From: a virus | IMG/VR virus record: IMGVR_UViG_3300046652_000008 | Span: 1-64,000 of that record | Reading direction: 5' to 3' (one strand) | DNA length: 64,000 bases | Part shown: one piece after another, positions 1,581 to 29,280 of the stretch | Position numbering within the stretch: the first letter of the stretch is position 1 | Layout: each line of letters begins with the position of its first letter | Notes under the pieces: model-generated | Databases searched by the model: none | Told to the model about the DNA's origin: nothing | Seen by the model: the letters and a program-made list of their open reading frames with translations, nothing else | Made by a program: the position numbers and the translations under genes

Positions 1581-3094
1581 TGGTACACCACATCGACCCA
1601 GTAGTTGGTCGAGTTCCATGTCGCTGTTGGGAACTTGTTTTTCCCGTAAACATAGACGCCATTACTTCCGTCTTGCCCATTTTTAAGAGCTGTCAGTGGA
1701 GCCGCAGTTACTCCAGATGTTGCAAAGTAGTTCACGCTGTCTGAGTAGTAACTCGCAGAGCTAACCGAGACTACGTAGGTAGTGTTAGCGGCAATGGAGA
1801 TCGGCGTGGCGAATAGCATTTGCTGCCAGCCGGAGGCCGTTTCCTTGGTGAACGTGATGCTTCCAAGCAGCGTGCCTGTGCGAGTCCAGAGATGTCCTAC
1901 GTGAGTTCCCGTGTTCTTTGAGCCCTTGTAGAAGCGCACGCCGGTAATATGTCCGGCCACACTAGAATTGAACTTCACGCCCACTTCGATGGCCGTTCCG
2001 TCTGAATCATTCGTGCTGGTCGGAGTCGCGCTGGATGGCCAGATGGAGCAAGGGCAAGTGGTTGTCGTGGCGGCTGTGAGCGCCAAAGAAGCGGTCGTGG
2101 ATGATCCGTTCAGACTGGCCGTGACGATACCCGTCTGTGTAGTCGCAATCGTTCCGGCTGTGACGATGAATGTGGCGGTTTTACTGCCCACCGCCACAGC
2201 GACTGATGTTGGCGTGGTCAAGAGCGCGGTGTTGTCGGATAACGTGACAGAGAGCCCACCCGTTGGGGCCGCGCTGCTCAATGTGACGGTACAACTGCTA
2301 CTAGCGCCGGAGTTTAAAGATGCCGGAGCACAAACCAATGCGGTCACCTTCACAAGTGGCGCAAGACTCAGGGAAGCTGTTTGAGTGCTGCCATTCAGGG
2401 CGGCTGTGACGACTGCCGTAAGTGGTGTGGCGACAGAGCCAGCCGTGGCCGTGAAGTGGCCTGTAGTCGAGTTGGCCGCGACCGTTGCACTGGCTGGGAC
2501 CGTGAGGCTGACGTTATTGCTCGTCAAACTGACAACGACTCCTCCAGCAGGGGCAGGCCCACTCAATATGACGGTACATGCGCTAGTGCCCGGTCCTGTT
2601 AAAGAAGATGGGGCACACGTAAGAGCGCTCACGGTCACAGTCGCTGGTACGGTCACCGTACCGCCCGACCCTGATGATGTGTTGGGCCATGCGTCAGCCA
2701 TGGCCGCGCTAGTGTTCGAGACTTTGATGGGGCGCGATAGAGCGCCGCCCGTGCTGAGGGTGAGCGCAGCAACTGCGATTGGCCCATCCTGAATAATTGT
2801 AGCGTTCATACCGGACAACAGACACACTAACTGGCCAGGAACCCCATAGCACGACAGTTGTTTTTTAACTGCCACTACCGAGTCGCTAGGAACGACGGAT
2901 ATCTTAGTGAAATCGGAGGGTGAGTATTCGAATGTCCATTGCACCGCAGCGGACCGCATAGCGTCCGATGTAAGGCTAAGCGTGAGATTTGCTGTGCCAC
3001 CAGCAGGTGTGGTAGTAGAGGATAGTGATAGTGTGGCCTGCGCATCGAGAGAAGCAGGCAGAAACAGGACCAGGAGGATGATAAGCGTGCGCAT
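1577..3094 (-). CDS. Secreted protein: cohesin-like domain, two Ig-like repeats, C-terminal DUF4082
   Basis: Signal peptide MRTLIILLVLFLPASLDA|Q; DUF4082 hallmarks IEVGVKF, ITGVRFYK, SGWQ, NYWVDV. Confidence 0.8.
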   Translation of the reverse strand: MRTLIILLVLFLPASLDAQATLSLSSTTTPAGGTANLTLSLTSDAMRSAAVQWTFEYSPSDFTKISVVPSDSVVAVKKQLSCYGVPGQLVCLLSGMNATIIQDGPIAVAALTLSTGGALSRPIKVSNTSAAMADAWPNTSSGSGGTVTVPATVTVSALTCAPSSLTGPGTSACTVILSGPAPAGGVVVSLTSNNVSLTVPASATVAANSTTGHFTATAGSVATPLTAVVTAALNGSTQTASLSLAPLVKVTALVCAPASLNSGASSSCTVTLSSAAPTGGLSVTLSDNTALLTTPTSVAVAVGSKTATFIVTAGTIATTQTGIVTASLNGSSTTASLALTAATTTTCPCSIWPSSATPTSTNDSDGTAIEVGVKFNSSVAGHITGVRFYKGSKNTGTHVGHLWTRTGTLLGSITFTKETASGWQQMLFATPISIAANTTYVVSVSSASYYSDSVNYFATSGVTAAPLTALKNGQDGSNGVYVYGKNKFPTATWNSTNYWVDVVYQ

Positions 3095-3098
3095 GAAT

Positions 3099-5489
3099 TT
3101 ATTTGGCTCCAATGTTAGGCGGGCTAGCAGTCGATACGCCCGCGATGTAGACGCCGGTGGCAATGGCAGGAGAGCTGCCCTGGAGCGTGAAGTCCGCTGT
3201 TGGTGAAGTAAGCAAAGGATCGGTAAACGGGCTTGAGTCCACGTTCGCGGCCCACCAGGAGTAATCCTGTTCCACACCGTTATAATAGAAAGTTCCGGTG
3301 CTAGAGTCGCTTCGGTAATATATGTTGTGGTCTATTGTCATCGCCGCTTGAGAGACGGACCATAAGATGTTCTTCGCGTTCAAAGCATAAAAGATGTTGT
3401 TCTTTATTTCTACCGAAGTTAGGTTGTCAACTAGCTGCATTTCAAGGGGGGCGTTACCTCCGACAGTCAGTGACTGCTGGTAGAACGTATTATTGTAAAT
3501 TTTAAGATCGACAGTTGCCGCTCCTGGGGTATCCTCAGATTCAGCAATTCCGTAATGGTTGCCGTAGATCAAGTTGTGGTGTATTGTAATTGCGATTGGT
3601 CGCGCTAGATTCTGCACCACGCCAATTCCCGCTAGTGTACTTGAATATAGAGTGTTGTTGTAGATAGATCCGCCATTGAAACGAGCAGAAATATCCGATC
3701 CAGCGATGGAACTGTATACAGTATTATCGTGAATCGTGACGTTGCTTGCATCCTGCCCCACGTACATTCCATGGCTGTATGGGTAAACACCATTAGTATC
3801 GTGGACCACGTTTCCGAAGATTGTAGTTCCATCATCGTAAACGCCGGGCCAAGTGACTATGATTCCGCCAGGGTATCCCCCGGAGAGCATCTGCCCTGGA
3901 TATAGGTCAGCCGTATAAGTAAGGGTGTTGTTGGAGACGACATTGCTCCCGCCCGCCAATTGTACTCCACCCGCTTGAGCATGGGAGATAGTGCTGCCGT
4001 TAACAATCGAGAAGCCTCCGGCAACTAAAACTGCAAGACCGTAAGTATATGAGATCGAACACCGTTGCATCGTTAGATGATCGGCGAAGATCATACCGTA
4101 TCCGTTCGACATTCTGAGATCAAGGTCTTGCACGGTTATGTTCGCTATCGACCCGTTTCCAAGCGGCCTTGTTCTCTGAGATGCCTCGATAGTGTGTCCA
4201 GATGGAGCAACATCACCCGCCAGCCGGATGTGTAATCGCGACGTTCCAGAATCATAATAGAAGGCTCCGGCAGGCAACGGAGCGAGACCGCTGGCAGGAG
4301 CAAGAGCCGTTCCGTTATCAACGACAAAGTATGGCTGAACCGCCGCAGTTGCGTAGTAATCCGTAAAGGTTCCGGTCGCCCCGCCCGGATAAGTCAGGCC
4401 GTATTGATAAATCTCCTGAATTTCCTCGTCCGTATACGGAGCCGGAGCAACAAACCACTCATCCCAGTTGGTAGTGGCGATTGATGTCCCATTGAACGTC
4501 AGCGAGTCTGCACTTGTCGTCAGGACAACGCCCCCAGACGTGGATACGTTGGTTTGCTTGACCCCATCAATCCAAAGAGATTTTTCATTGCTTCCGCCTG
4601 CCCCCGCCCGGTTGGTTCCGTTCCACCGAAATGCTATATGGTGCCAGCCCGATGTGGTGTAGGCGGCATTGGCTGAAAGAACCGCAGCGTTGGCGATAAG
4701 GACTTGTATTTGGTTAGCGGTCCCGCCAATTCGGAACCTCCACCCGCGAGTCGTTCCGTCTCCAAAATTGGCAATTGTCTGATAGGCGTTGCTCCCGGCT
4801 ACCAGATAGACCCATCCTCCGACCGTCGCAGCAGTGGTCGCGGCCTTGAATGGAAAGTTTGCTGAAAGCGAAGTGTAGCCCAAAGTTTGTACGTAGCAGC
4901 CAAAGGGAGTGTTGAGCGAGTAAATGCCTGCTGTTCCGAATCCGGCAGGATAACTGCCAGAGCGCGAACAAGATCCGCTGAGCCACGGTATATCGTTGCC
5001 ATTGGTACTTCCGTCAAGCGCTGGGCTGGATGCATCCTGAAACATCCACCACGAAGTTGGCTGGTCTCCGGTAGCGTCAGTTGTAAAGTCATGTCCGAGA
5101 GGATACGTTACGCTCTCCATTGTCCACGAACCGAAGATGTCGGCCCCCGTGATGATCGGCGCGACCCCCGCACCATACGCTCCGTAAGTGACATTTCCAA
5201 CGTTGTGCGTTAGTTGCTCCCGCCACAGCCCACCACGTTTGAAAGCGACGGACTGGCCAGAGGTGAGCGTGGTTCCGTTGACCTTGGCGATGGTCTGCCA
5301 CGGTGCGACGATCGTGCCGGCGTTGGAGTCCGCGCCGCCAGAGGAATCGACATAGTAAGTAAAGACCTGAGCAGATGATACGCCCACCACTGCATTCCCA
5401 GAAATCACAGTATGTCCAGTCGCCACGGTTTGGGCCTGTGCTGTCATTGTGAGACACAGGCAAATGGCAAGAAGAACCGAGAGTCTCAT
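3099..5489 (-). CDS. Secreted LamG/concanavalin-like plus right-handed beta-helix (pectin-lyase-like) protein
   Basis: Signal peptide ...TAQA|Q; YYVDSSGGADSNAGT..PWQTI; LamG motifs WHHIA, LWIDG; parallel beta-helix repeats; DFTLQGSSPAI..G..PNIGA C-terminus. Confidence 0.8.
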   Translation of the reverse strand: MRLSVLLAICLCLTMTAQAQTVATGHTVISGNAVVGVSSAQVFTYYVDSSGGADSNAGTIVAPWQTIAKVNGTTLTSGQSVAFKRGGLWREQLTHNVGNVTYGAYGAGVAPIITGADIFGSWTMESVTYPLGHDFTTDATGDQPTSWWMFQDASSPALDGSTNGNDIPWLSGSCSRSGSYPAGFGTAGIYSLNTPFGCYVQTLGYTSLSANFPFKAATTAATVGGWVYLVAGSNAYQTIANFGDGTTRGWRFRIGGTANQIQVLIANAAVLSANAAYTTSGWHHIAFRWNGTNRAGAGGSNEKSLWIDGVKQTNVSTSGGVVLTTSADSLTFNGTSIATTNWDEWFVAPAPYTDEEIQEIYQYGLTYPGGATGTFTDYYATAAVQPYFVVDNGTALAPASGLAPLPAGAFYYDSGTSRLHIRLAGDVAPSGHTIEASQRTRPLGNGSIANITVQDLDLRMSNGYGMIFADHLTMQRCSISYTYGLAVLVAGGFSIVNGSTISHAQAGGVQLAGGSNVVSNNTLTYTADLYPGQMLSGGYPGGIIVTWPGVYDDGTTIFGNVVHDTNGVYPYSHGMYVGQDASNVTIHDNTVYSSIAGSDISARFNGGSIYNNTLYSSTLAGIGVVQNLARPIAITIHHNLIYGNHYGIAESEDTPGAATVDLKIYNNTFYQQSLTVGGNAPLEMQLVDNLTSVEIKNNIFYALNAKNILWSVSQAAMTIDHNIYYRSDSSTGTFYYNGVEQDYSWWAANVDSSPFTDPLLTSPTADFTLQGSSPAIATGVYIAGVSTASPPNIGAK

Positions 5490-22611: not shown

Positions 22612-23079
22612 CTACCTACCGGACGAACCAAATCCGCCATCGCCGCGTTCAGTCTTGTCTAACTCTTGGACAACGCTGAACTTAACTGGTGTATACTGTG
22701 AAAATACTAGCTGTGCAACCCTATCGCCAATCTGCACATCATATGGGTTCCGCCCAACGTTCACTAGGATAACTCCGACCTCTCCACGATAGCCAGGATC
22801 AATCGTTCCAGGGCTGTTAGCCACGATGATACCCTTCGTTGCCATACCGCTCCGCGTGCGTATCTGCGCTTCCACTGGAGCACTGAACGACAGCACTAGG
22901 CCCGTCTTGACCACCTGAACCTCTGACGGGTTAATGTGGACGTTCTCCACCGCGTACAGGTCACAACCTGCATCGTCCTCATGCGCGTACATCGGTAGTT
23001 TGGCTAACTTATGCACTAGCTTAACGCCTACCGTCTCGATTAATGCCGTTTCTTCGTTTTTCTTCATTACCATCCCCAT
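22612..23079 (-). CDS. dut: Trimeric dUTPase
   Basis: DAGCDLY, RSG, GTIDPGYRGEV, DRVAQL, RGDGGFGSSG. Confidence 0.97.
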   Translation of the reverse strand: MGMVMKKNEETALIETVGVKLVHKLAKLPMYAHEDDAGCDLYAVENVHINPSEVQVVKTGLVLSFSAPVEAQIRTRSGMATKGIIVANSPGTIDPGYRGEVGVILVNVGRNPYDVQIGDRVAQLVFSQYTPVKFSVVQELDKTERGDGGFGSSGR

Positions 23080-23396
23080 CCTTCTTCAATTACTTGAAGT
23101 TTATCCCATTGCAGTTCGGCCCAATCTTCGTTTAGCTGAGTCTGCCTATCCGTCCACTCCCTGTAGTCTTTCGGTAGCTCTGGTTTCGGCGGAATTATAA
23201 CCCCGTACATCTTGAATATGATCCCGTCTATGTCCAAGCCATCCTTTGCTAGCGTTCCAGCCATCCCGCCACGATCAATGTCCGTATCTTCGTAGGGCGC
23301 TGCTAGCGCATCCAGTAACTCTCGTGTCAACACTCCAGCATCGTAAACCGCAAGTACCGATGCTTCAAAACTACTGAACGCTGCATTGTTTCCCAT
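23067..23396 (-). CDS. Hypothetical protein
   Basis: 109-aa ORF with AAGGAG RBS. Confidence 0.7.
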   Translation of the reverse strand: MGNNAAFSSFEASVLAVYDAGVLTRELLDALAAPYEDTDIDRGGMAGTLAKDGLDIDGIIFKMYGVIIPPKPELPKDYREWTDRQTQLNEDWAELQWDKLQVIEEGWGW

Positions 23397-23409
23397 GGCT
23401 TTATCTCCT

Positions 23410-24010
23410 TACCTCTCTATCCTAGCACGCTCATGCTGGTCCGTGTTGAGTAATAGTTCAACGTGCTGTTACATTCTCCATGTGGCATTCCATTTGCTAT
23501 CCGTGCGTGCTGGAATGGCCGGGAGCAACCTAGCAAGCACTCTGTTAACTGGCTTCTAAGCACTCGGTCCCTCGAATGACATTTATCCATTAGACCCGTC
23601 GAAGCGAGTACAAATACCTCAAGGGTTAGCTTGCGCATAAATCATTATGCGGAGAGGGTTTGCCAATCCAGGTTTGTCTCACAGGCAGCAGACGAGGGTA
23701 TCCCGTCAGTCCTGAGCGATGCCCTGCTTTTATCATGCACAGAGGCAATCAAACAATAGAAGATTCATGCGCGAATCGCACTTTTCGAGTGTAGTTTTTG
23801 TGGCCGCACTCGACCTCGTTCTCTATTGCCCTGTATCCACCGGAGGTTTGGTGCTGCTCCTAGCTTTACCCAAACCACGACTCACCGTTTTGTCCTCAAC
23901 CGCGTGCGGATAAAGGACGTAAGTAGTTCCCTCTGCCCTATCAGGGCTGTCAATGGATACAGACTCTCAATGAATTCGGACATGCATTACCCTTCTCGTC
24001 TCAGCCTAAA
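23410..24010 (-). ncRNA. Candidate large (~600 nt) multi-domain structured ncRNA, family unassigned
   Basis: Gap in otherwise contiguous genes; nested long-range helices 23988-24000/23691-23700 and 23954-23962/23831-23839 plus many hairpins. Confidence 0.7.
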
Positions 24011-24021
24011 ATCGTGTAAGT

Positions 24022-24225
24022 TTAACGCTCTGCTACTTTATATTTCTCGCAATACTTGTCAATAAAAGAATTACGATCTGCTATGTTTTTGTCTACAGTT
24101 TTCTTGAACTGTTTGGACAAACACCTGCCCAACTTGTTTCTAGGATCAATCCCGGTACTTCTTTGCTTGAAGTACACGTCGCCAGTGCTATTCTGTAGGC
24201 CCAACCGTTTGTCTAGGGTGCTCAT
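24022..24225 (-). CDS. Hypothetical basic protein
   Basis: ORF with GGAG RBS. Confidence 0.5.
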   Translation of the reverse strand: MSTLDKRLGLQNSTGDVYFKQRSTGIDPRNKLGRCLSKQFKKTVDKNIADRNSFIDKYCEKYKVAER

Positions 24226-24430
24226 GGGATGCTCCTGCTAAAGTTTTGGGTTTGTTCCACGAGTAGGACTGGCACATAGGACATCGTTTCGGTTCAAGTC
24301 GTATGTCACGTCTAAACCAAGAGTATCCGCAGCGTAAACAAGTCCTAGCAAATAGATCAAATCCCTCTCTATTTTTAGTATCGCACGATGTCACGTCGTA
24401 GTCAATGGGTTTTGAAAGATTATTTTCCAT
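24188..24430 (-). CDS. Small zinc-ribbon protein
   Basis: CLRCGYSW...PKRCPMCQSYSWNKP. Confidence 0.65.
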   Translation of the reverse strand: MENNLSKPIDYDVTSCDTKNREGFDLFARTCLRCGYSWFRRDIRLEPKRCPMCQSYSWNKPKTLAGASHEHPRQTVGPTE

Positions 24431-24638
24431 ATGCCACCATCGTAATGGGAATATCATGCTGTCTTACTGTCGCAAGAAACTTAAAACGCATTTTTTCCAT
24501 CTTGCACGTGTACTCAGCGTTTTCCGGTTTGGCTGGACTCGCCGCTATCGCCTTATGCGGACGCATCTTGATCCTAAATCTTCCCGGAGAGGGATGTTGC
24601 GAACGAGTCATAAATCGTTTGTCTGGCCCGTGTGCCAT
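24420..24638 (-). CDS. Hypothetical protein
   Basis: ORF directly after the upstream stop. Confidence 0.45.
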   Translation of the reverse strand: MAHGPDKRFMTRSQHPSPGRFRIKMRPHKAIAASPAKPENAEYTCKMEKMRFKFLATVRQHDIPITMVAYGK

Positions 24639-24639
24639 G

Positions 24640-24915
24640 TTACCCTTTCAGCATCTCCACTATTTTTGCCTGTAGCGTCTTATCGAGTTGGACAGTACCC
24701 AAGAGGAACAAGAAACACTGTTCTCGCTCCTCTAACGGCAGCAGCTTCGCCGTATTCACTAGGAAATTGATAGACGACGCAAGCTTGCCGCGCATGTCAT
24801 CGCAGATAAGCTCTTGTGCTTTTAGCTCGTATTGATAATGCTTATATCTGTTATAGAAGAATCCGGCAGCCGCGATAGCCGCCCAAACCGCGATTCCTAG
24901 GATTGTTTCTAGCAT
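24640..24915 (-). CDS. Membrane-anchored hypothetical protein
   Basis: N-terminal TM; AAGGA RBS. Confidence 0.65.
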   Translation of the reverse strand: MLETILGIAVWAAIAAAGFFYNRYKHYQYELKAQELICDDMRGKLASSINFLVNTAKLLPLEEREQCFLFLLGTVQLDKTLQAKIVEMLKG

Positions 24916-24927
24916 CTATTCCTTTTA

Positions 24928-24948
24928 TGGCACCAAGGCTCCGATTCG
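24928..24948 (-). pseudogene. 3' fragment (nt 56-76) of the interrupted tRNA-Trp(CCA)
   Basis: CGAAT CGGAG CCTTGGT G CCA pairs with the T-stem CTCCG and acceptor ATCAGGG of the 5' fragment at 25741-25795. Confidence 0.85.
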
Positions 24949-24951
24949 CGC

Positions 24952-25026
24952 TGGCACCGGAGGAGGGAATCGAACCCCCGTTTGAGGTTTTGGAGACCAC
25001 CGTAATGACCACTATACTACTCCGAT
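24952..25026 (-). tRNA. trnW: tRNA-Trp(CCA), intact replacement copy
   Basis: Acceptor ATCGGAG/CTCCGGT, loop CT-CCA-AA, T-arm GGGGG-TTCGATT-CCCTC, G73 and encoded CCA. Confidence 0.92.
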
Positions 25027-25028
25027 GA

Positions 25029-25697
25029 TTATATGATAGCATTTTTCTTCGGCCCCGGTTGCCACCCTCCAAAGAGTCCATCATCATACGCTTTTTTCAC
25101 GTATGCGCTTATAAAATCCCAGGCCATAATTGGCATAGCGCCCCTTATATAATTGCACCTGCGACAGCATGGAACCACGTTGTCAATGGTATGCCCAAGT
25201 GAGTTATCTATTCTATCAAGCCCCATCATCAGGGGAGAGCTATCGCCACAGTACTTGCACCCATTGATTATCATGTCAATAACCGACTGCTCGCTAATAT
25301 GCGGATCGCCAAAACCATGCTTTATGTCCCACGATTTGCAGTTTGTGACTATCCAGTAAGCCCTATGCGCCGGATTGGTCCTAGATATAGAATTTAGCCT
25401 TCTTTTCCTGTCTAGAGCCTCTTCATATATTCCATTTCGCCTGCTCGTCTCTAGGTCTCTAATAGATTCGCATTTCTTGCACATCGAACAGAAGTATTTC
25501 TTACCACACCGAGACCTAGTTTTGTGAAATTGGTCTGCCGTTTTTTCCTCAAAGCAAACAGAGCATTTGCGTATCGCCCTATTTTCCTTGTAATCAACAA
25601 CGGACGATATGCACTTACCTTTGTTTCTGTAGTAGTATTCCCTACGGTATCTTCTGTCGCGGTCTAACTTTGATTCTTTTATCCCTGTATCTTCCAT
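25029..25697 (-). CDS. HNH / His-Me finger homing endonuclease with N-terminal zinc finger
   Basis: CSVC...CSMCKKC; CKYCG...GLDRIDNSLGHTIDNVVPCCRRCN. Confidence 0.88.
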   Translation of the reverse strand: MEDTGIKESKLDRDRRYRREYYYRNKGKCISSVVDYKENRAIRKCSVCFEEKTADQFHKTRSRCGKKYFCSMCKKCESIRDLETSRRNGIYEEALDRKRRLNSISRTNPAHRAYWIVTNCKSWDIKHGFGDPHISEQSVIDMIINGCKYCGDSSPLMMGLDRIDNSLGHTIDNVVPCCRRCNYIRGAMPIMAWDFISAYVKKAYDDGLFGGWQPGPKKNAII

Positions 25698-25705
25698 CTA
25701 CTTTT

Positions 25706-25734
25706 AGTATTTCACATCCAAAGCAGCAAGTCAA
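25706..25734 (-). promoter_or_regulatory. Sigma70-type promoter for the HNH gene (near-leaderless)
   Basis: TTGACT-17 bp-AATACT, 8 nt upstream of the ATG and 6 nt inside the insertion boundary. Confidence 0.55.
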
Positions 25735-25740
25735 TAAGAC

Positions 25741-25795
25741 AACGGAGGTTCGCGGGTTTGGAGTCCGCAGTCCTGAACCACTAGACGACCCTGAT
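25741..25795 (-). pseudogene. 5' fragment (nt 1-55) of the interrupted tRNA-Trp(CCA)
   Basis: ATCAGGG TC GTCT AGTGGTTCA GGAC T GCGGA CTCCAAA CCCGC GAAC CTCCG TT, then breaks off. Confidence 0.85.
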
Positions 25796-25816
25796 AACTT
25801 AATCATAACACGAAAC

Positions 25817-25894
25817 TGGAGGGCATAATTCGGGTCGAACGGATATTGACGGCTCCACAGGCCGCCGCATTTAACCAGTTATGCTATACGCCCT
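25817..25894 (-). tRNA. trnH: tRNA-His(GUG)
   Basis: Acceptor GGGCGTA/TATGCCC, anticodon arm GCGGC-CTGTGGA-GCCGT, TTCGA T-loop, encoded CCA; A(-1):U73. Confidence 0.85.
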
Positions 25895-25899
25895 AAGCA

Positions 25900-25988
25900 T
25901 GGTGCCAGCAGATGGAGTTGAGCCATCGGGGAGGCTTAGCCTCAACGGGTTTACAGCCCGCCCCCGCCCACTACGGGACTATACTGGC
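25900..25988 (-). tRNA. trnY: tRNA-Tyr(GUA), long variable arm
   Basis: Acceptor GCCAGTA/TGCTGGC, arm GCGGG-CTGTAAA-CCCGT, variable stem GAGGC/GCCTC, A73 and CCA; T-loop CTCAACT. Confidence 0.85.
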
Positions 25989-25990
25989 AA

Positions 25991-26150
25991 AAGAGAGGGA
26001 GGCCGCATGAGTCGAACATGCTGTTCCTAGAAAACTGCTCCGGCTGCACATCCCATAAAATCTCGCGCATGGACCTTTTAATACTCGCTGTTCCGTAGAT
26101 GCCTAGCGTCTCTCTACCCTTATTGGCGCGTCTATTCGGGCAAGTCCACT
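25991..26150 (-). ncRNA. Candidate structured RNA ending in a tRNA/tmRNA-like T-arm
   Basis: GCATG-TTCGACT-CATGC-GGCCTCC near the 3' end; helices UGGACUU/AGGUCCA, AGAGAG/CUCUCU, GCAUC/GAUGU. Confidence 0.5.
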
Positions 26151-26158
26151 AACTAAGT

Positions 26159-26605
26159 TTACGCCTTCATGAACGCCTTAATTGCAAAAATAGCATCAAC
26201 AACGTCCTGGGTCAGCGGAACCACCGTATTTGACGGAGTAGATAAAGCGCAGAACGCAGGATTCGTCATGATATCAGTACAAAGCTCTAACCCTGCCGCC
26301 GTAACCTTATCTTTACTGAGGGGAACGGGAGCTGCCGGAATAACCGTCTTTCCAGGTGTTGGCGTTCCGCCTAAAACATTGGCCGTGAGTGCTTCCTGGA
26401 CACTGACAGTGTGGGTACTCCACGCTGGATATCCATCTAACCCACGAACAACGCAGTCATAGGTAAAACTAGGACCAGTGATATCCCCATACCCAATAAC
26501 CCAATTCTTTACGGGCATATCGTAGTTGAATTGTCCTGAAGCCGATACAGTTGGGAACTTATAAAAGTTCGACAACGGAACTGGAGAAATTACGGAATTT
26601 TTCAT
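26159..26605 (-). CDS. Hypothetical protein within the tRNA cluster
   Basis: GAAGGA RBS before MKNSV. Confidence 0.65.
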   Translation of the reverse strand: MKNSVISPVPLSNFYKFPTVSASGQFNYDMPVKNWVIGYGDITGPSFTYDCVVRGLDGYPAWSTHTVSVQEALTANVLGGTPTPGKTVIPAAPVPLSKDKVTAAGLELCTDIMTNPAFCALSTPSNTVVPLTQDVVDAIFAIKAFMKA

Positions 26606-26640
26606 CTTGTTTCCTTCAATCAACCAACATAAATCGTTAT

Positions 26641-26707
26641 TTGGGCGTGTTGAGATCGTCAACGTTTCACGGGTTCACCCGTGCGTCCTTTACTAGACGA
26701 ACGCCCC
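26641..26707 (-). ncRNA. tRNA-like cloverleaf lacking an anticodon loop and CCA (mimic or pseudogene)
   Basis: GGGCGT/ACGCCC acceptor, GTC/GAC D-arm, CACGGG-TGAA-CCCGTG, GTTGA-CGATC-TCAAC. Confidence 0.6.
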
Positions 26708-26785
26708 ATCCAGATGGCGGGATTTGAACCCGCGACCTACTCCCCTATTGGGGAGCTGCTCTACCAGACTGAGCTACGTCCAGAT
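26708..26785 (-). ncRNA. tRNA-like cloverleaf lacking a functional anticodon and CCA (mimic or pseudogene)
   Basis: Canonical TAGCTCAGTCTGGTAGAGC D-arm and GCGGG-TTCAAAT-CCCGC T-arm, but anticodon arm GCTCCCC-AATA-GGGGAGT. Confidence 0.7.
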
Positions 26786-26793
26786 GTTTATCA

Positions 26794-26872
26794 TGGCTCT
26801 CGGCCCAGGATTCGGACCTGGAACCAACACTTTAACAGAGTGCCGCTCTACCTGAATTTGAGCTAGCCGAGA
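26794..26872 (-). tRNA. trnN: tRNA-Asn(GUU)
   Basis: Acceptor TCTCGGC/GCCGAGA, arm GCACT-CTGTTAA-AGTGT, G73 and CCA; T-loop TCCGAAT. Confidence 0.9.
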
Positions 26873-26884
26873 ACAAGCCCCACT

Positions 26885-26977
26885 TCAACTCTTCGGTTTA
26901 TCTTCCTTGTTAACAGGAGGTTTCTCTCCCCATCCTGGCATTGGTTGCCCATCAACAGTTTTATTAACACAAGACAT
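26885..26977 (-). CDS. 30-aa leader ORF ahead of the tRNA cluster
   Basis: AAAGGA RBS; MSCVNKTVDGQPMPGWGEKPPVNKEDKPKS. Confidence 0.4.
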   Translation of the reverse strand: MSCVNKTVDGQPMPGWGEKPPVNKEDKPKS

Positions 26978-26996
26978 ATCGTTGTTTCCTTTATCA

Positions 26997-27006
26997 ATTA
27001 TAGCAC
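26997..27006 (-). promoter_or_regulatory. Extended -10 promoter driving the tRNA cluster
   Basis: GTGC-TATAAT; one of about a dozen intergenic RTGY-TAnnnT motifs. Confidence 0.65.
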
Positions 27007-27018
27007 AGTACCAAGAAA

Positions 27019-27366
27019 CTAGTCTCTATCCGGATGTTCCTTGCGCTCGATCAGCCTGTTTTGGTCGGGCGTGAAGAATCCTAATCCGCCCTGTTTCTTG
27101 TCTGTTCGCACAATCCAGGCCGTCTCTTCCATTTCGCCAAGAGTCGGCATGGCTCGATTCTGATATTGATTGCACTCCGCAACCTCAAACGGAAATACCC
27201 TCATGCCATCCTGCATAATGGAATAATTGCTACACCCACGGATAACTTGATTACCCACGCCGCGAATCTTAACTCCGAACCTACAGGTGCGACAGGGGCT
27301 CTCCCCAGATACGGTTGTGCCATCCTCAACTTTAAGAACTACTCGATTATATGCAAATTCGTCCAT
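27019..27366 (-). CDS. Cys-containing hypothetical protein
   Basis: CRTC...C...C; AGGAG RBS. Confidence 0.65.
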   Translation of the reverse strand: MDEFAYNRVVLKVEDGTTVSGESPCRTCRFGVKIRGVGNQVIRGCSNYSIMQDGMRVFPFEVAECNQYQNRAMPTLGEMEETAWIVRTDKKQGGLGFFTPDQNRLIERKEHPDRD

Positions 27367-27385
27367 GGTAGAACTCCTTAAAGGC

Positions 27386-27739
27386 TTAATCGTAGACTTC
27401 TAGGTACGAAACTGTCTTCCAGATCGTCTTGTCATATGCAACCGGGAATGGATCATACTCCACCCCATTTGAGTATACCATCCAATGGCCCTTTTTTCCG
27501 TTAATTACCTTGGACCTTATGATGCATAGCTTTGGAAACTGCTTATTTTTCCTAACCCTCTCCAACTTACCGCTATTCTTGAAACCACACATATTCAAAG
27601 CTCGGGCCAGCTCATCCACGTTGGTGCAGTGGTTATGTCCAACTATCAGACATGCGGATTCTAGGCTGATATCCAATATCATTGCTAGGCAGGTCTGGCC
27701 GCAGGTATAGGACTCAATTGGTTGGTGCAGTTGCTTCAT
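27386..27739 (-). CDS. Peptidase C39-like (papain-fold) protein
   Basis: Q....TCGQTCLAM, GHWMV, YDP. Confidence 0.75.
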   Translation of the reverse strand: MKQLHQPIESYTCGQTCLAMILDISLESACLIVGHNHCTNVDELARALNMCGFKNSGKLERVRKNKQFPKLCIIRSKVINGKKGHWMVYSNGVEYDPFPVAYDKTIWKTVSYLEVYD

Positions 27740-27804
27740 CGTGCCCAGTATTTCCCTAGAATCTGAGTAAGCTGTTTTACGATTTCTTCGATGGTCATAC
27801 TATT

Positions 27805-28167
27805 TTACTCACCCTTGTCGGAGAATCGGACACCATAATCATTAAAGACTTCGGAAAGTCCACACGTACAGTCGCGCAAGGGCCAGTTGCAGCCTTTTTC
27901 GTGCTGGCCGTACCTTCTAATCATACCGCAAAGACGGTCAAAACGGGCCTTAACGTACAAATTTAGGCCGGGAACGACCTCCGGGGAGTAGTTTGTGCCA
28001 GCGCAGTAGAGCATAACGTCAAATTTCTCGCGTTTGTCGTCGTTTTCTACCTCTTTTAGCCTATTTTTTGCACTTGCAAGTTTCAGATTTAGGTCTTTGT
28101 TGATTTCTTCGTACTTTATAAGCTCCTTGGCTACGTCTTGGCCCTGAATTGTCGTTTGTTTCGCCAC
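27805..28167 (-). CDS. Hypothetical protein
   Basis: GTG start with AGGAG RBS; H..GC......CTCG. Confidence 0.6.
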   Translation of the reverse strand: MAKQTTIQGQDVAKELIKYEEINKDLNLKLASAKNRLKEVENDDKREKFDVMLYCAGTNYSPEVVPGLNLYVKARFDRLCGMIRRYGQHEKGCNWPLRDCTCGLSEVFNDYGVRFSDKGE

Positions 28168-28178
28168 TTCTCACGCTC

Positions 28179-28997
28179 CTAATACGATGTTCCGCGCTCT
28201 CCACGCTTCCAGTATCCCTTATCGTCGTCCCATGAATTATCCATCGTTATGTTGGTTGTTTGCGGTAGGTAAAATTCAGCCATCTTTGCAATTAGCTGTG
28301 CCTTATCATCCCGTAGCCGCTGTTTTTCGGCTTCTATCTTAGCCTTAGCCTTTTCAATTTCTTCCTCCTGGCTTTCCCACGGCAGCCGTGGAGCGTCAAT
28401 CAATAATGGCACCTTCTCTATGAAGTCCAGTCCAGCCTTGTAGTCTAATTTTATCGACTCCGGCTCCTTCTCTTTTCGCTCCGGATAGAATTGAAAACCG
28501 TCTACTCTCAGAAATGTTTCAGGAGGAAACTGTTTAATTTTCCAGAATCCAGTCTTAATATTGCTTGCCTTCATCAGATCGTGCATACAGCCCAAGCAGA
28601 TGCGTATATGTTCCTCCTTGCGTTCCACTATTAAGCAGATATAAACGTAACGGTCATTGGGTACGTGCGTATGCGGCAATGTGAACGCGCCCCAGTAGCA
28701 TTCTTTCCCATCTTGCCCGTAATCGTGGGCCTTCATGCACGATTGGTCACGAGATGTGATTTCAAGCCCACAGTCCAAGAATGGATTATATGCAGCGTAG
28801 TCTTCATAGGTATATCCCCTGTACGTGCCTTTTGGGTCTGGTTCGTTTGGAATGGCCTTTAGATCACACTTTGCGGAGAACATAACTCCGTATGCGCGGC
28901 AACGCTTGCAGGGCCGAAGCCCCTGGATGTTATTCTTCGCCGGGAAATAGCATTCCTTGCAGATCCACATTTTCTTGTTCATCGTCTTTGTCTCCAT
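28179..28997 (-). CDS. Cys-rich hypothetical protein
   Basis: 272 aa with several CxxC pairs. Confidence 0.65.
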   Translation of the reverse strand: METKTMNKKMWICKECYFPAKNNIQGLRPCKRCRAYGVMFSAKCDLKAIPNEPDPKGTYRGYTYEDYAAYNPFLDCGLEITSRDQSCMKAHDYGQDGKECYWGAFTLPHTHVPNDRYVYICLIVERKEEHIRICLGCMHDLMKASNIKTGFWKIKQFPPETFLRVDGFQFYPERKEKEPESIKLDYKAGLDFIEKVPLLIDAPRLPWESQEEEIEKAKAKIEAEKQRLRDDKAQLIAKMAEFYLPQTTNITMDNSWDDDKGYWKRGERGTSY

Positions 28998-29280
28998 ATC
29001 GTTCCTGTACCAGCTTCTTCAGTATACTCCCATGACAAAATTTTGGAGCACAGAAACAACCAAGATCATGGCCGCGAAGTAGCCCCAGGCTTTTCATGAT
29101 TACCGCATTGCCACGCGCGTATGGTTCGTATTTTGCAATCGCCTCTTCTCGCGTTGAGCACTGGAGCTTTGCTTTCGTCTTATCTAATGGAAGGTGGGTA
29201 TATGGATTCCCCCACATTGAGCCGCGCCCTATGTATATGTAACTTCCCGGCTTAGCCTTGCGGACGTTGACTACCCGCAT
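28930..29280 (-). CDS. DUF4326 family protein
   Basis: VVN...YIGRGSMWGNPY...LGCFCAP..CHG. Confidence 0.85.
   Translation of the reverse strand: MRVVNVRKAKPGSYIYIGRGSMWGNPYTHLPLDKTKAKLQCSTREEAIAKYEPYARGNAVIMKSLGLLRGHDLGCFCAPKFCHGSILKKLVQERYGDKDDEQENVDLQGMLFPGEE

Follow-up and report, generated by a model that had tools for sequence, protein, structure and literature searches.

A PacI-like HNH nuclease gene and a divergent tRNA-Trp nested within the T-loop of a broken phage tRNA-Trp gene

The closest known system to the cassette described here is SegB of phages T4 and T6. The T4 enzyme, a GIY-YIG nuclease, has a 27-bp site containing GGTTCRANTCC, which is T-loop DNA; cleavage falls inside tRNA genes, and the enzyme favours the inheritance of T4's tRNA region (PMC2330249). 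A 2026 study mapped SegB cuts within tRNA genes and found segB to be widely associated with tRNAs (PMC13096335). For phage T5, the citing text places the genes of the HNH endonucleases F-TflI/II/IV among those for tRNAs (Akulenko et al. 2004, cited in PMC2330249). The prevailing view is that a selfish nuclease gene can occupy an essential gene only if it is taken out of the product by an intron or intein. At the locus presented here a conserved RNA gene is occupied without splicing, as would be feasible because the element carries a substitute. Our full-text literature search, with many subscription journals outside its coverage, returned no description of a tRNA gene split by a nuclease gene carrying a spare tRNA.

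The window, meaning the whole 64-kb stretch of DNA that was analysed, is the first part of a 94.9-kb IMG/VR virus contig (CheckV completeness 76%; GC 49.9%). Its terminase, portal and replication genes resemble those of known phages only distantly, and the stretch is present in peat metagenome runs. The locus lies in a cluster carried entirely on the minus strand, which reads in order tRNA-Asn, a tRNA-like gene, a 167-aa ORF, tRNA-Tyr(GUA), tRNA-His, the broken tRNA-Trp with its insert, and a 91-aa ORF. The features on which the argument turns are these:

26872-26794, minus strand: tRNA-Asn, first in the cluster order
25817..25893, minus strand: tRNA-His(GTG) of the resident tRNA cluster, 21 nt upstream of the broken gene
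25741..25795, minus strand: 5' piece of the resident tRNA-Trp(CCA), positions 1-55, 55 nt (ARAGORN on the join)
24949..25740, minus strand: the insert, or cassette, 792 bp, GC 44.3% vs 49.9% for the genome
25706..25734, minus strand: at the insert's 5' end, a sigma-70-like sequence (TTGACT-17-AATACT with TG) that is a consensus match only
25029..25697, minus strand: ORF of 222 aa, PacI-like HNH, with an N-terminal CxxC...CxxC region and a beta-beta-alpha-metal motif
24952..25026, minus strand: cargo tRNA-Trp(CCA), intact, 75 nt (ARAGORN; Rfam tRNA 57.7 bits)
24949..24951, minus strand: GCG, the trinucleotide that closes the insert and separates the cargo CCA from the resident C56
24928..24948, minus strand: 3' piece of the resident tRNA-Trp, positions 56-76, 21 nt (ARAGORN on the join)
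24640..24915, minus strand: ORF of 91 aa starting 12 nt past the 3' piece, in keeping with tight native packing of the resident gene

Two other members of the cluster have features of their own. The tRNA-Tyr(GUA) at 25904-25988 (minus strand) has the long variable arm of bacterial-type tRNA-Tyr and an encoded CCA; it is missed by ARAGORN and surfaces only as a 34-bit Rfam tRNA-Sec match. The tRNA-like gene at 26708-26784 (minus strand, also given as 26784-26708) scores 47.9 bits with the Rfam tRNA model. Its acceptor stem has one mismatch and two G-U pairs, and its anticodon arm is zipped into a hairpin of 6-7 bp with a 4-nt loop (AATA), leaving no readable anticodon; it may be a mimic or decoy rather than a decoder.

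Joining the two resident pieces (55 + 21 nt) gives, by ARAGORN, a 76-nt tRNA-Trp(CCA) with no base lost or gained. The 5' piece comprises the acceptor 5' strand, D arm, anticodon arm, T stem 5' strand and T54-T55, its 3' end being CTCCG-TT, and the 3' piece reads CGAAT-CGGAG-CCTTGGT-G-CCA, that is, CGAAT followed by the T stem 3' strand, the acceptor 3' strand, G73 and CCA. The joined molecule has a 7-bp acceptor stem (two G-U pairs), a 5-bp T stem and the T-loop TTCGAAT, and the break falls in that loop between positions 55 and 56. The first-pass annotation had placed the split exactly at U55/C56 and counted 76 nt when rejoined; this was confirmed both by ARAGORN and by virtual excision, in which all positions up to 200 nt upstream of the ORF were joined to all positions up to 300 nt downstream and each of the 60,000 joins was submitted to ARAGORN, with calls that reused intact tRNAs masked or discarded. 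A single split tRNA emerged with the intact tRNAs masked, and it is the resident tRNA-Trp. With the ARAGORN threshold raised to 110%, the exact join 25741|24948 alone survives, and shifting the join by one base puts G56 in place of C56. By a rough estimate, the chance of 12 cross-piece pairs together with C56-R57-A58 and CCA is ~4e-9 per given position. There is no second copy of either piece in the 94.9-kb contig, no microhomology or duplication at the two junctions, and no terminal inverted or direct repeat at the insert ends.

A layout of this kind might be produced by an assembly chimera, in which reads of two phage variants are joined at conserved tRNA sequence, and tRNA T-arms do draw short cross-matches from other organisms (loose ends at 24961-25002). 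However, in run X1, which like X2 may be one of the contig's own source samples, one 30.6-kb contig spans 24400-26400 with no differences, and in run X2 the right junction lies in one contig and the left in another, each crossing by >350 nt. The junctions also fall outside the sequence common to the two tRNA genes, and a chimera is thus hardly credible. A contig skipping the insert was not found in four runs, of which X4 and X5 contain low-depth flank pieces only, a result that does not bear on the existence of empty alleles. Exact-pattern scans of IMG/VR gave no hit for the 5' piece, the rejoined T-arm or a shortened T-arm, and megablast and blastn of 24500-26300 against GenBank phages returned only short tRNA matches. 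Relatives of the window phage were sought through TerL, the Lon-like protease and the 167-aa cluster ORF, and no empty allele was found among them: the nearest, L002, whose TerL is 85% identical, stops around window 24600, a little before the site is reached, and the other relatives found are without tRNA-Trp. Scanning metagenomes with a dUTPase alignment, whose patterns were too generic, gave one unrelated locus (L012). The dUTPase of the window (22612-23079, minus strand) is 69% identical to that of L002, and the two contigs are collinear in gene order from 18 to 24.5 kb at 38-88% protein identity.

Within the insert the order is the ORF, 2 nt, the intact tRNA-Trp(CCA) and GCG. The cargo tRNA, which starts 2 nt past the HNH stop codon, has an A1-U72 pair, G73 and an encoded CCA, and is identical to the broken gene at 53/76 positions. 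Its T-loop is TTCGATT and the conserved core is the same as in the resident, so any resistance to cutting would have to come from the stems. The content proposed at first, an HNH gene and an intact, divergent tRNA-Trp 3 nt from the right junction, stands, whereas the promoter credited to the insert is not above chance, since TTGACT-17-AATACT matches are no more frequent than in shuffled sequence. Likewise the cargo is a divergent tRNA-Trp as claimed but was wrongly termed an isoacceptor; having the same anticodon, it is an isodecoder.

Another reading is that an ancestral tandem pair had the HNH gene between its members and that deletions left complementary pieces by chance. Upstream of the cargo and the broken gene, 15 nt are weakly alike (9/15; 25008-25041 vs 25777-25810), forming part of a repeat, D1, with 71% identity over 34 nt including the gene starts. 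This likeness may reflect a common locus of origin for the two Trp genes, in different phages, or simply chance between AT-rich leaders. Against a tandem origin, the deletions would need end points falling precisely at 55 and 56 without the loss of a base, the genes at 53/76 identity are not recent duplicates, and the same exactness would need to recur in the two further nested cases set out below (L033 and phage phiKZ). We regard this origin as very improbable.

Using cmscan with Rfam over 23000-29000, no intron or ribozyme family was found at E <= 1; the only matches were to the tRNA clan, together with a weak Y-RNA-like overlap with the upstream tRNAs (26755-26828). No integrase was found, the HNH gene being the only ORF with a family match, and there is no att duplication: neither tRNA piece is repeated, and the element DNA does not complete the 5' piece. 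The absence of target duplication, integrase and intron core reported by the first-pass annotation was thus upheld by cmscan, by the ORF family searches and by the repeat search. These data support a DNA insertion that is neither an intron nor an integrase element.

Could the pieces still be in use? They might be united by removal of an unknown intron at the RNA level, or persist as two RNAs that pair along the acceptor and T stems to form a tRNA-Trp that works despite a nick. Neither piece is damaged and their fit is perfect, and endonuclease-split protein genes offer a precedent in Aeh1 nrdA, which is reportedly a gene in pieces, split by a mobE insertion. Archaeal-type machinery for joining split tRNAs is not known in bacteria. 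The break in the T-loop is not at a known intron site, and a complete spare tRNA makes such a rescue unnecessary. The minimum-energy fold of the 868-nt RNA leaves the pieces unpaired, and forcing them to pair costs 10.5 kcal/mol, although long-range folding predictions are weak evidence. In L033 the T-loop is partly lost, and in phiKZ the relic has drifted. Because no ribozyme family was found, the pieces are unpaired in the predicted fold and the relics of both other cases are damaged, rejoining at the RNA level, or any other use of the pieces, seems extremely doubtful.

The 222-aa ORF has its own start and stop and stands alone, outside any detected intron. It is present in a single copy and is the lowest-GC 670-bp stretch of the contig (43.6%); an identical HNH occurs in two other contigs. 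The protein matches phrog_1035 ('endonuclease VII') at E 8e-21 and five PHROG families named HNH endonuclease. Pfam gave nothing above cut-off, since HNH_5 reached only 10.8 bits and HNH 7.8 bits, scores far below the thresholds; the Pfam HNH models do not accommodate so divergent a family, and membership therefore rests on profile and fold results. In an alignment with nine database relatives the motif C.YCG...LDRIDN..GH..NV.PCC.RCN..R is invariant, and all invariant residues are present in the ORF. The family profile matches the HNH of PDB 4h9d at E 1.4e-4 and also PacI, including its N-terminal CxxC region. The best Foldseek match of an AlphaFold model (pLDDT 80) is PacI (E 5.8e-4, prob 1.0), followed by Gme HNH and Cas9 HNH domains, and model strands 158-162 and 174-178 and helix 179-185 match PacI and Gme HNH. 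The PHROG hits, the 4h9d and PacI profile matches and the predicted fold all agree with the original call of an HNH endonuclease. PacI (PDB 3ldy), an HNH restriction endonuclease, is the best match by both structure and profile and has in common with the window protein the N-terminal CxxC...CxxC region and a DR.D..G(H/Y)..N..C..CN core. It differs in being only 16% identical and in its role, which is restriction at an 8-bp site and not that of a mobile-element nuclease.

Scanning IMG/VR with the HNH family alignment gave 80 loci, of which those up to L072 were scanned for tRNAs. The closer homologues (E <= 1e-15; L014-L040) lie nearly all inside phage tRNA arrays and share the strand of the tRNAs, one of which usually follows 20-150 nt downstream. 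Among the weaker hits, L041-L070 and L072 have no tRNA nearby, L071 has a single tRNA plus an opposite-strand tmRNA, and distant family members in cultured phages are ordinary free-standing genes between unrelated genes. The distribution is patchy, the homologues occupying tRNA arrays of many unrelated IMG/VR phages. As most family members sit between intact tRNA genes and not within one, nesting is exceptional, and it may be a repair accident rather than a designed strategy.

Virtual excision was repeated on the homologue loci with mismatched-locus controls, which yielded 3 seven-pair clusters in 18 trials. At L033, which is identical to L035, an HNH gene and an intact but divergent tRNA-Gly(GCC) interrupt the T-loop of another tRNA-Gly(GCC), arranged as follows:

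2815-2869: 5' piece of the tRNA-Gly(GCC), from virtual excision
2875-2946: intact divergent tRNA-Gly(GCC)
2989-3510: HNH gene
directly at the HNH stop codon and ending at 3527: 3' piece, with T-stem strand, acceptor strand and ACCA

All cross-piece stem pairs (12/12) are Watson-Crick, and the gene ends in ACCA; the break lies between positions 54 and 58, with part of the T-loop lost. Cargo of the same anticodon and the T-loop site are common to L033 and the window. The two events are independent, being in different phages, in different tRNAs and with opposite gene order.

Immediately after the tRNA-Gly 3' relic of L033, positions 3528-3590 resemble a tRNA-Ile(GAT) without a proper 5' acceptor strand, which ARAGORN calls only when 10-15 arbitrary nt are added. 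Split-tRNA candidates at L014, L025 and L037 were rejected: they are tRNAs that are truncated at the 5' end or were missed, many short partners complete them, and they were not above the mismatched-locus controls. At L038, joining 2647-2703 to 3631-3657 gives a selenocysteine-tRNA-like shape with anticodon GCA and CCA, having an 8-bp acceptor, a 6-bp anticodon stem, a long variable arm and a 4-bp T stem. Its 0.9-kb insert holds two tRNA-Leu and an HNH gene of the window family, without a spare GCA tRNA, and it is possibly a third nested case with a different break point. Orphan pieces of 25-35 nt, running from the T arm to the acceptor 3' end, lie near HNH genes at L013, L016, L018, L020, L037 and others, for example at L020 2960-2989 (5 nt upstream of the HNH) and L018 3597-3628. 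These were found with an nhmmer tRNA profile so insensitive that it missed even the window 5' piece. Such pieces might be left over from earlier breaks or might serve as processing signals. In Raoultella phage Ro1 (L116; MG250486, 139.2-140.3 kb) a distant HNH homologue lies directly beside a DNA primase/helicase annotated as two CDS, which may be another gene split by the same nuclease family.

A parallel with an empty form was found in phage phiKZ (NC_004629, about 268.8-269.7 kb), where a tRNA-Asn(GTT) is split in the anticodon loop by an intact tRNA-Asn(GTT) and the HNH gene PHIKZ296. The record annotates 'tRNA-Asn' and 'HNH endonuclease' only, leaving the split unannotated. Many phiKZ relatives with >99% identity are without about 0.77 kb at the PHIKZ296 site, and phiLC, whose flanks are 99.4% identical to phiKZ, has one whole tRNA-Asn there. 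That gene agrees with the phiKZ join at 72/76 positions vs only 56 with the phiKZ cargo tRNA, and the relic has drifted from the whole gene. The locus resembles that of the window in nesting an intact tRNA and an HNH gene in a broken tRNA of the same anticodon, with the whole gene kept by close relatives. It differs in the anticodon-loop break, in the order tRNA then HNH, and in an HNH that BLASTP finds unrelated to that of the window. Because phiLC and other relatives keep the whole gene, at least one cultured lineage shows the layout to be a true insertion, and it has arisen with different nuclease families. All 3 nested cases checked, window Trp, L033 Gly(GCC) and phiKZ Asn(GTT), carry cargo of the same anticodon as the gene they break.

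These comparisons bear on whether the window locus is a one-off repair accident, in which an intergenic HNH cut the gene and donor DNA with a neighbouring tRNA-Trp was captured illegitimately, leaving a dead scar and no moving unit. Such an account would fit the intergenic position of most family members in their arrays, the lack of homology or repeats at either junction and the tRNA debris common in these arrays. Random capture, however, would be unlikely to bring the matching anticodon in 3/3 cases, occupied and empty forms coexist among phiKZ relatives at >99% flank identity, and the cassette borders are tight, with a 43-nt leader at one end and 3 nt past the CCA at the other. An isolated accident is accordingly unlikely, though we give it some weight.

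The cassette locus is a real insertion scar of a nuclease-plus-tRNA segment and probably a form of intronless homing. In our view the window probably records a DNA insertion of a PacI-like HNH gene and its adjoining tRNA-Trp into the resident tRNA-Trp at 55|56, with the cargo supplying the function. We envisage that enzymes of this family find their target in tRNA genes and cut it in or close to the conserved T-loop DNA, as SegB, an unrelated GIY-YIG nuclease, does, and that the tRNA beside the nuclease gene would be a cut-resistant version of the target. A genome with a sensitive tRNA-Trp would have been cut, and the segment of nuclease and tRNA joined into the break, because the donor and resident genes (about 70% identity) were too different for clean gene conversion. 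The resident tRNA-Trp would now be a two-piece relic, with the cargo tRNA-Trp presumably processed from the tRNA-cluster transcript. Since the cassette lies inside its own disrupted target, flanked by tRNA halves that would act as homology arms, ordinary homing could carry it further, and it may be mobile still. Free-standing homing endonucleases cut the allele of the conserved gene they adjoin, which would explain why cargo and target share an anticodon in all three nested cases checked. The first-pass annotation had gone further, to a selfish element that destroys its target yet stays neutral through a cleavage-resistant tRNA, an alternative to splicing; the anatomy and its recurrence in L033 and phiKZ favour this proposal in part, with cleavage of the rejoined allele, resistance of the cargo and neutrality of the insertion as its putative elements.

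It is a more tentative idea, held with rather less than even confidence, that breaking and replacing is a regular homing strategy, in which members of the HNH family would recognise T-loop DNA, insert into tRNA genes and supply each with a cut-resistant version of the tRNA it encodes. Were this so, cassettes would carry tRNA genes from phage to unrelated phage, steadily altering the tRNA sets of phages, and the many intergenic HNH-tRNA pairs in arrays would be old events with decayed relics. If general, the process would explain the clustering of homing nucleases with tRNA genes in phages, tRNA gene hopping between unrelated phages and the tRNA fragments littering phage tRNA arrays. There is a consequence for annotation too, as tRNA finders see the cargo gene only and miss the broken resident gene. 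The recurrence of the T-loop position, twice in one HNH family, provides a concrete and testable target site for an uncharacterised nuclease family.

Set beside known systems, what is particular to the window case is the T-loop site together with a PacI-like HNH family living in tRNA arrays. Like T4/T6 SegB, the window HNH is a free-standing nuclease gene in a phage tRNA cluster, and T-loop DNA lies in the SegB recognition site (PMC2330249; PMC13096335) as it does at the insertion point here, from which alone our cut site is deduced. SegB drags neighbouring tRNA genes along by co-conversion; unlike the window enzyme it is GIY-YIG and not HNH, segB sits between genes and splits no tRNA gene, and no nested spare tRNA is described. 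T5 F-TflI/II/IV are, like the window enzyme, of HNH type and encoded among phage tRNA genes, and the text that cites them (PMC2330249) reports no split-and-replace layout. The tRNA genes of bacteria and phages can also contain group I introns that encode homing endonucleases, likewise mobile nuclease inserts that leave the host a working tRNA (PMC3984707). They interrupt the anticodon loop and carry a ribozyme, whereas the window cassette has no ribozyme and occupies the T-loop, and it is a second gene, not splicing, that keeps the function.
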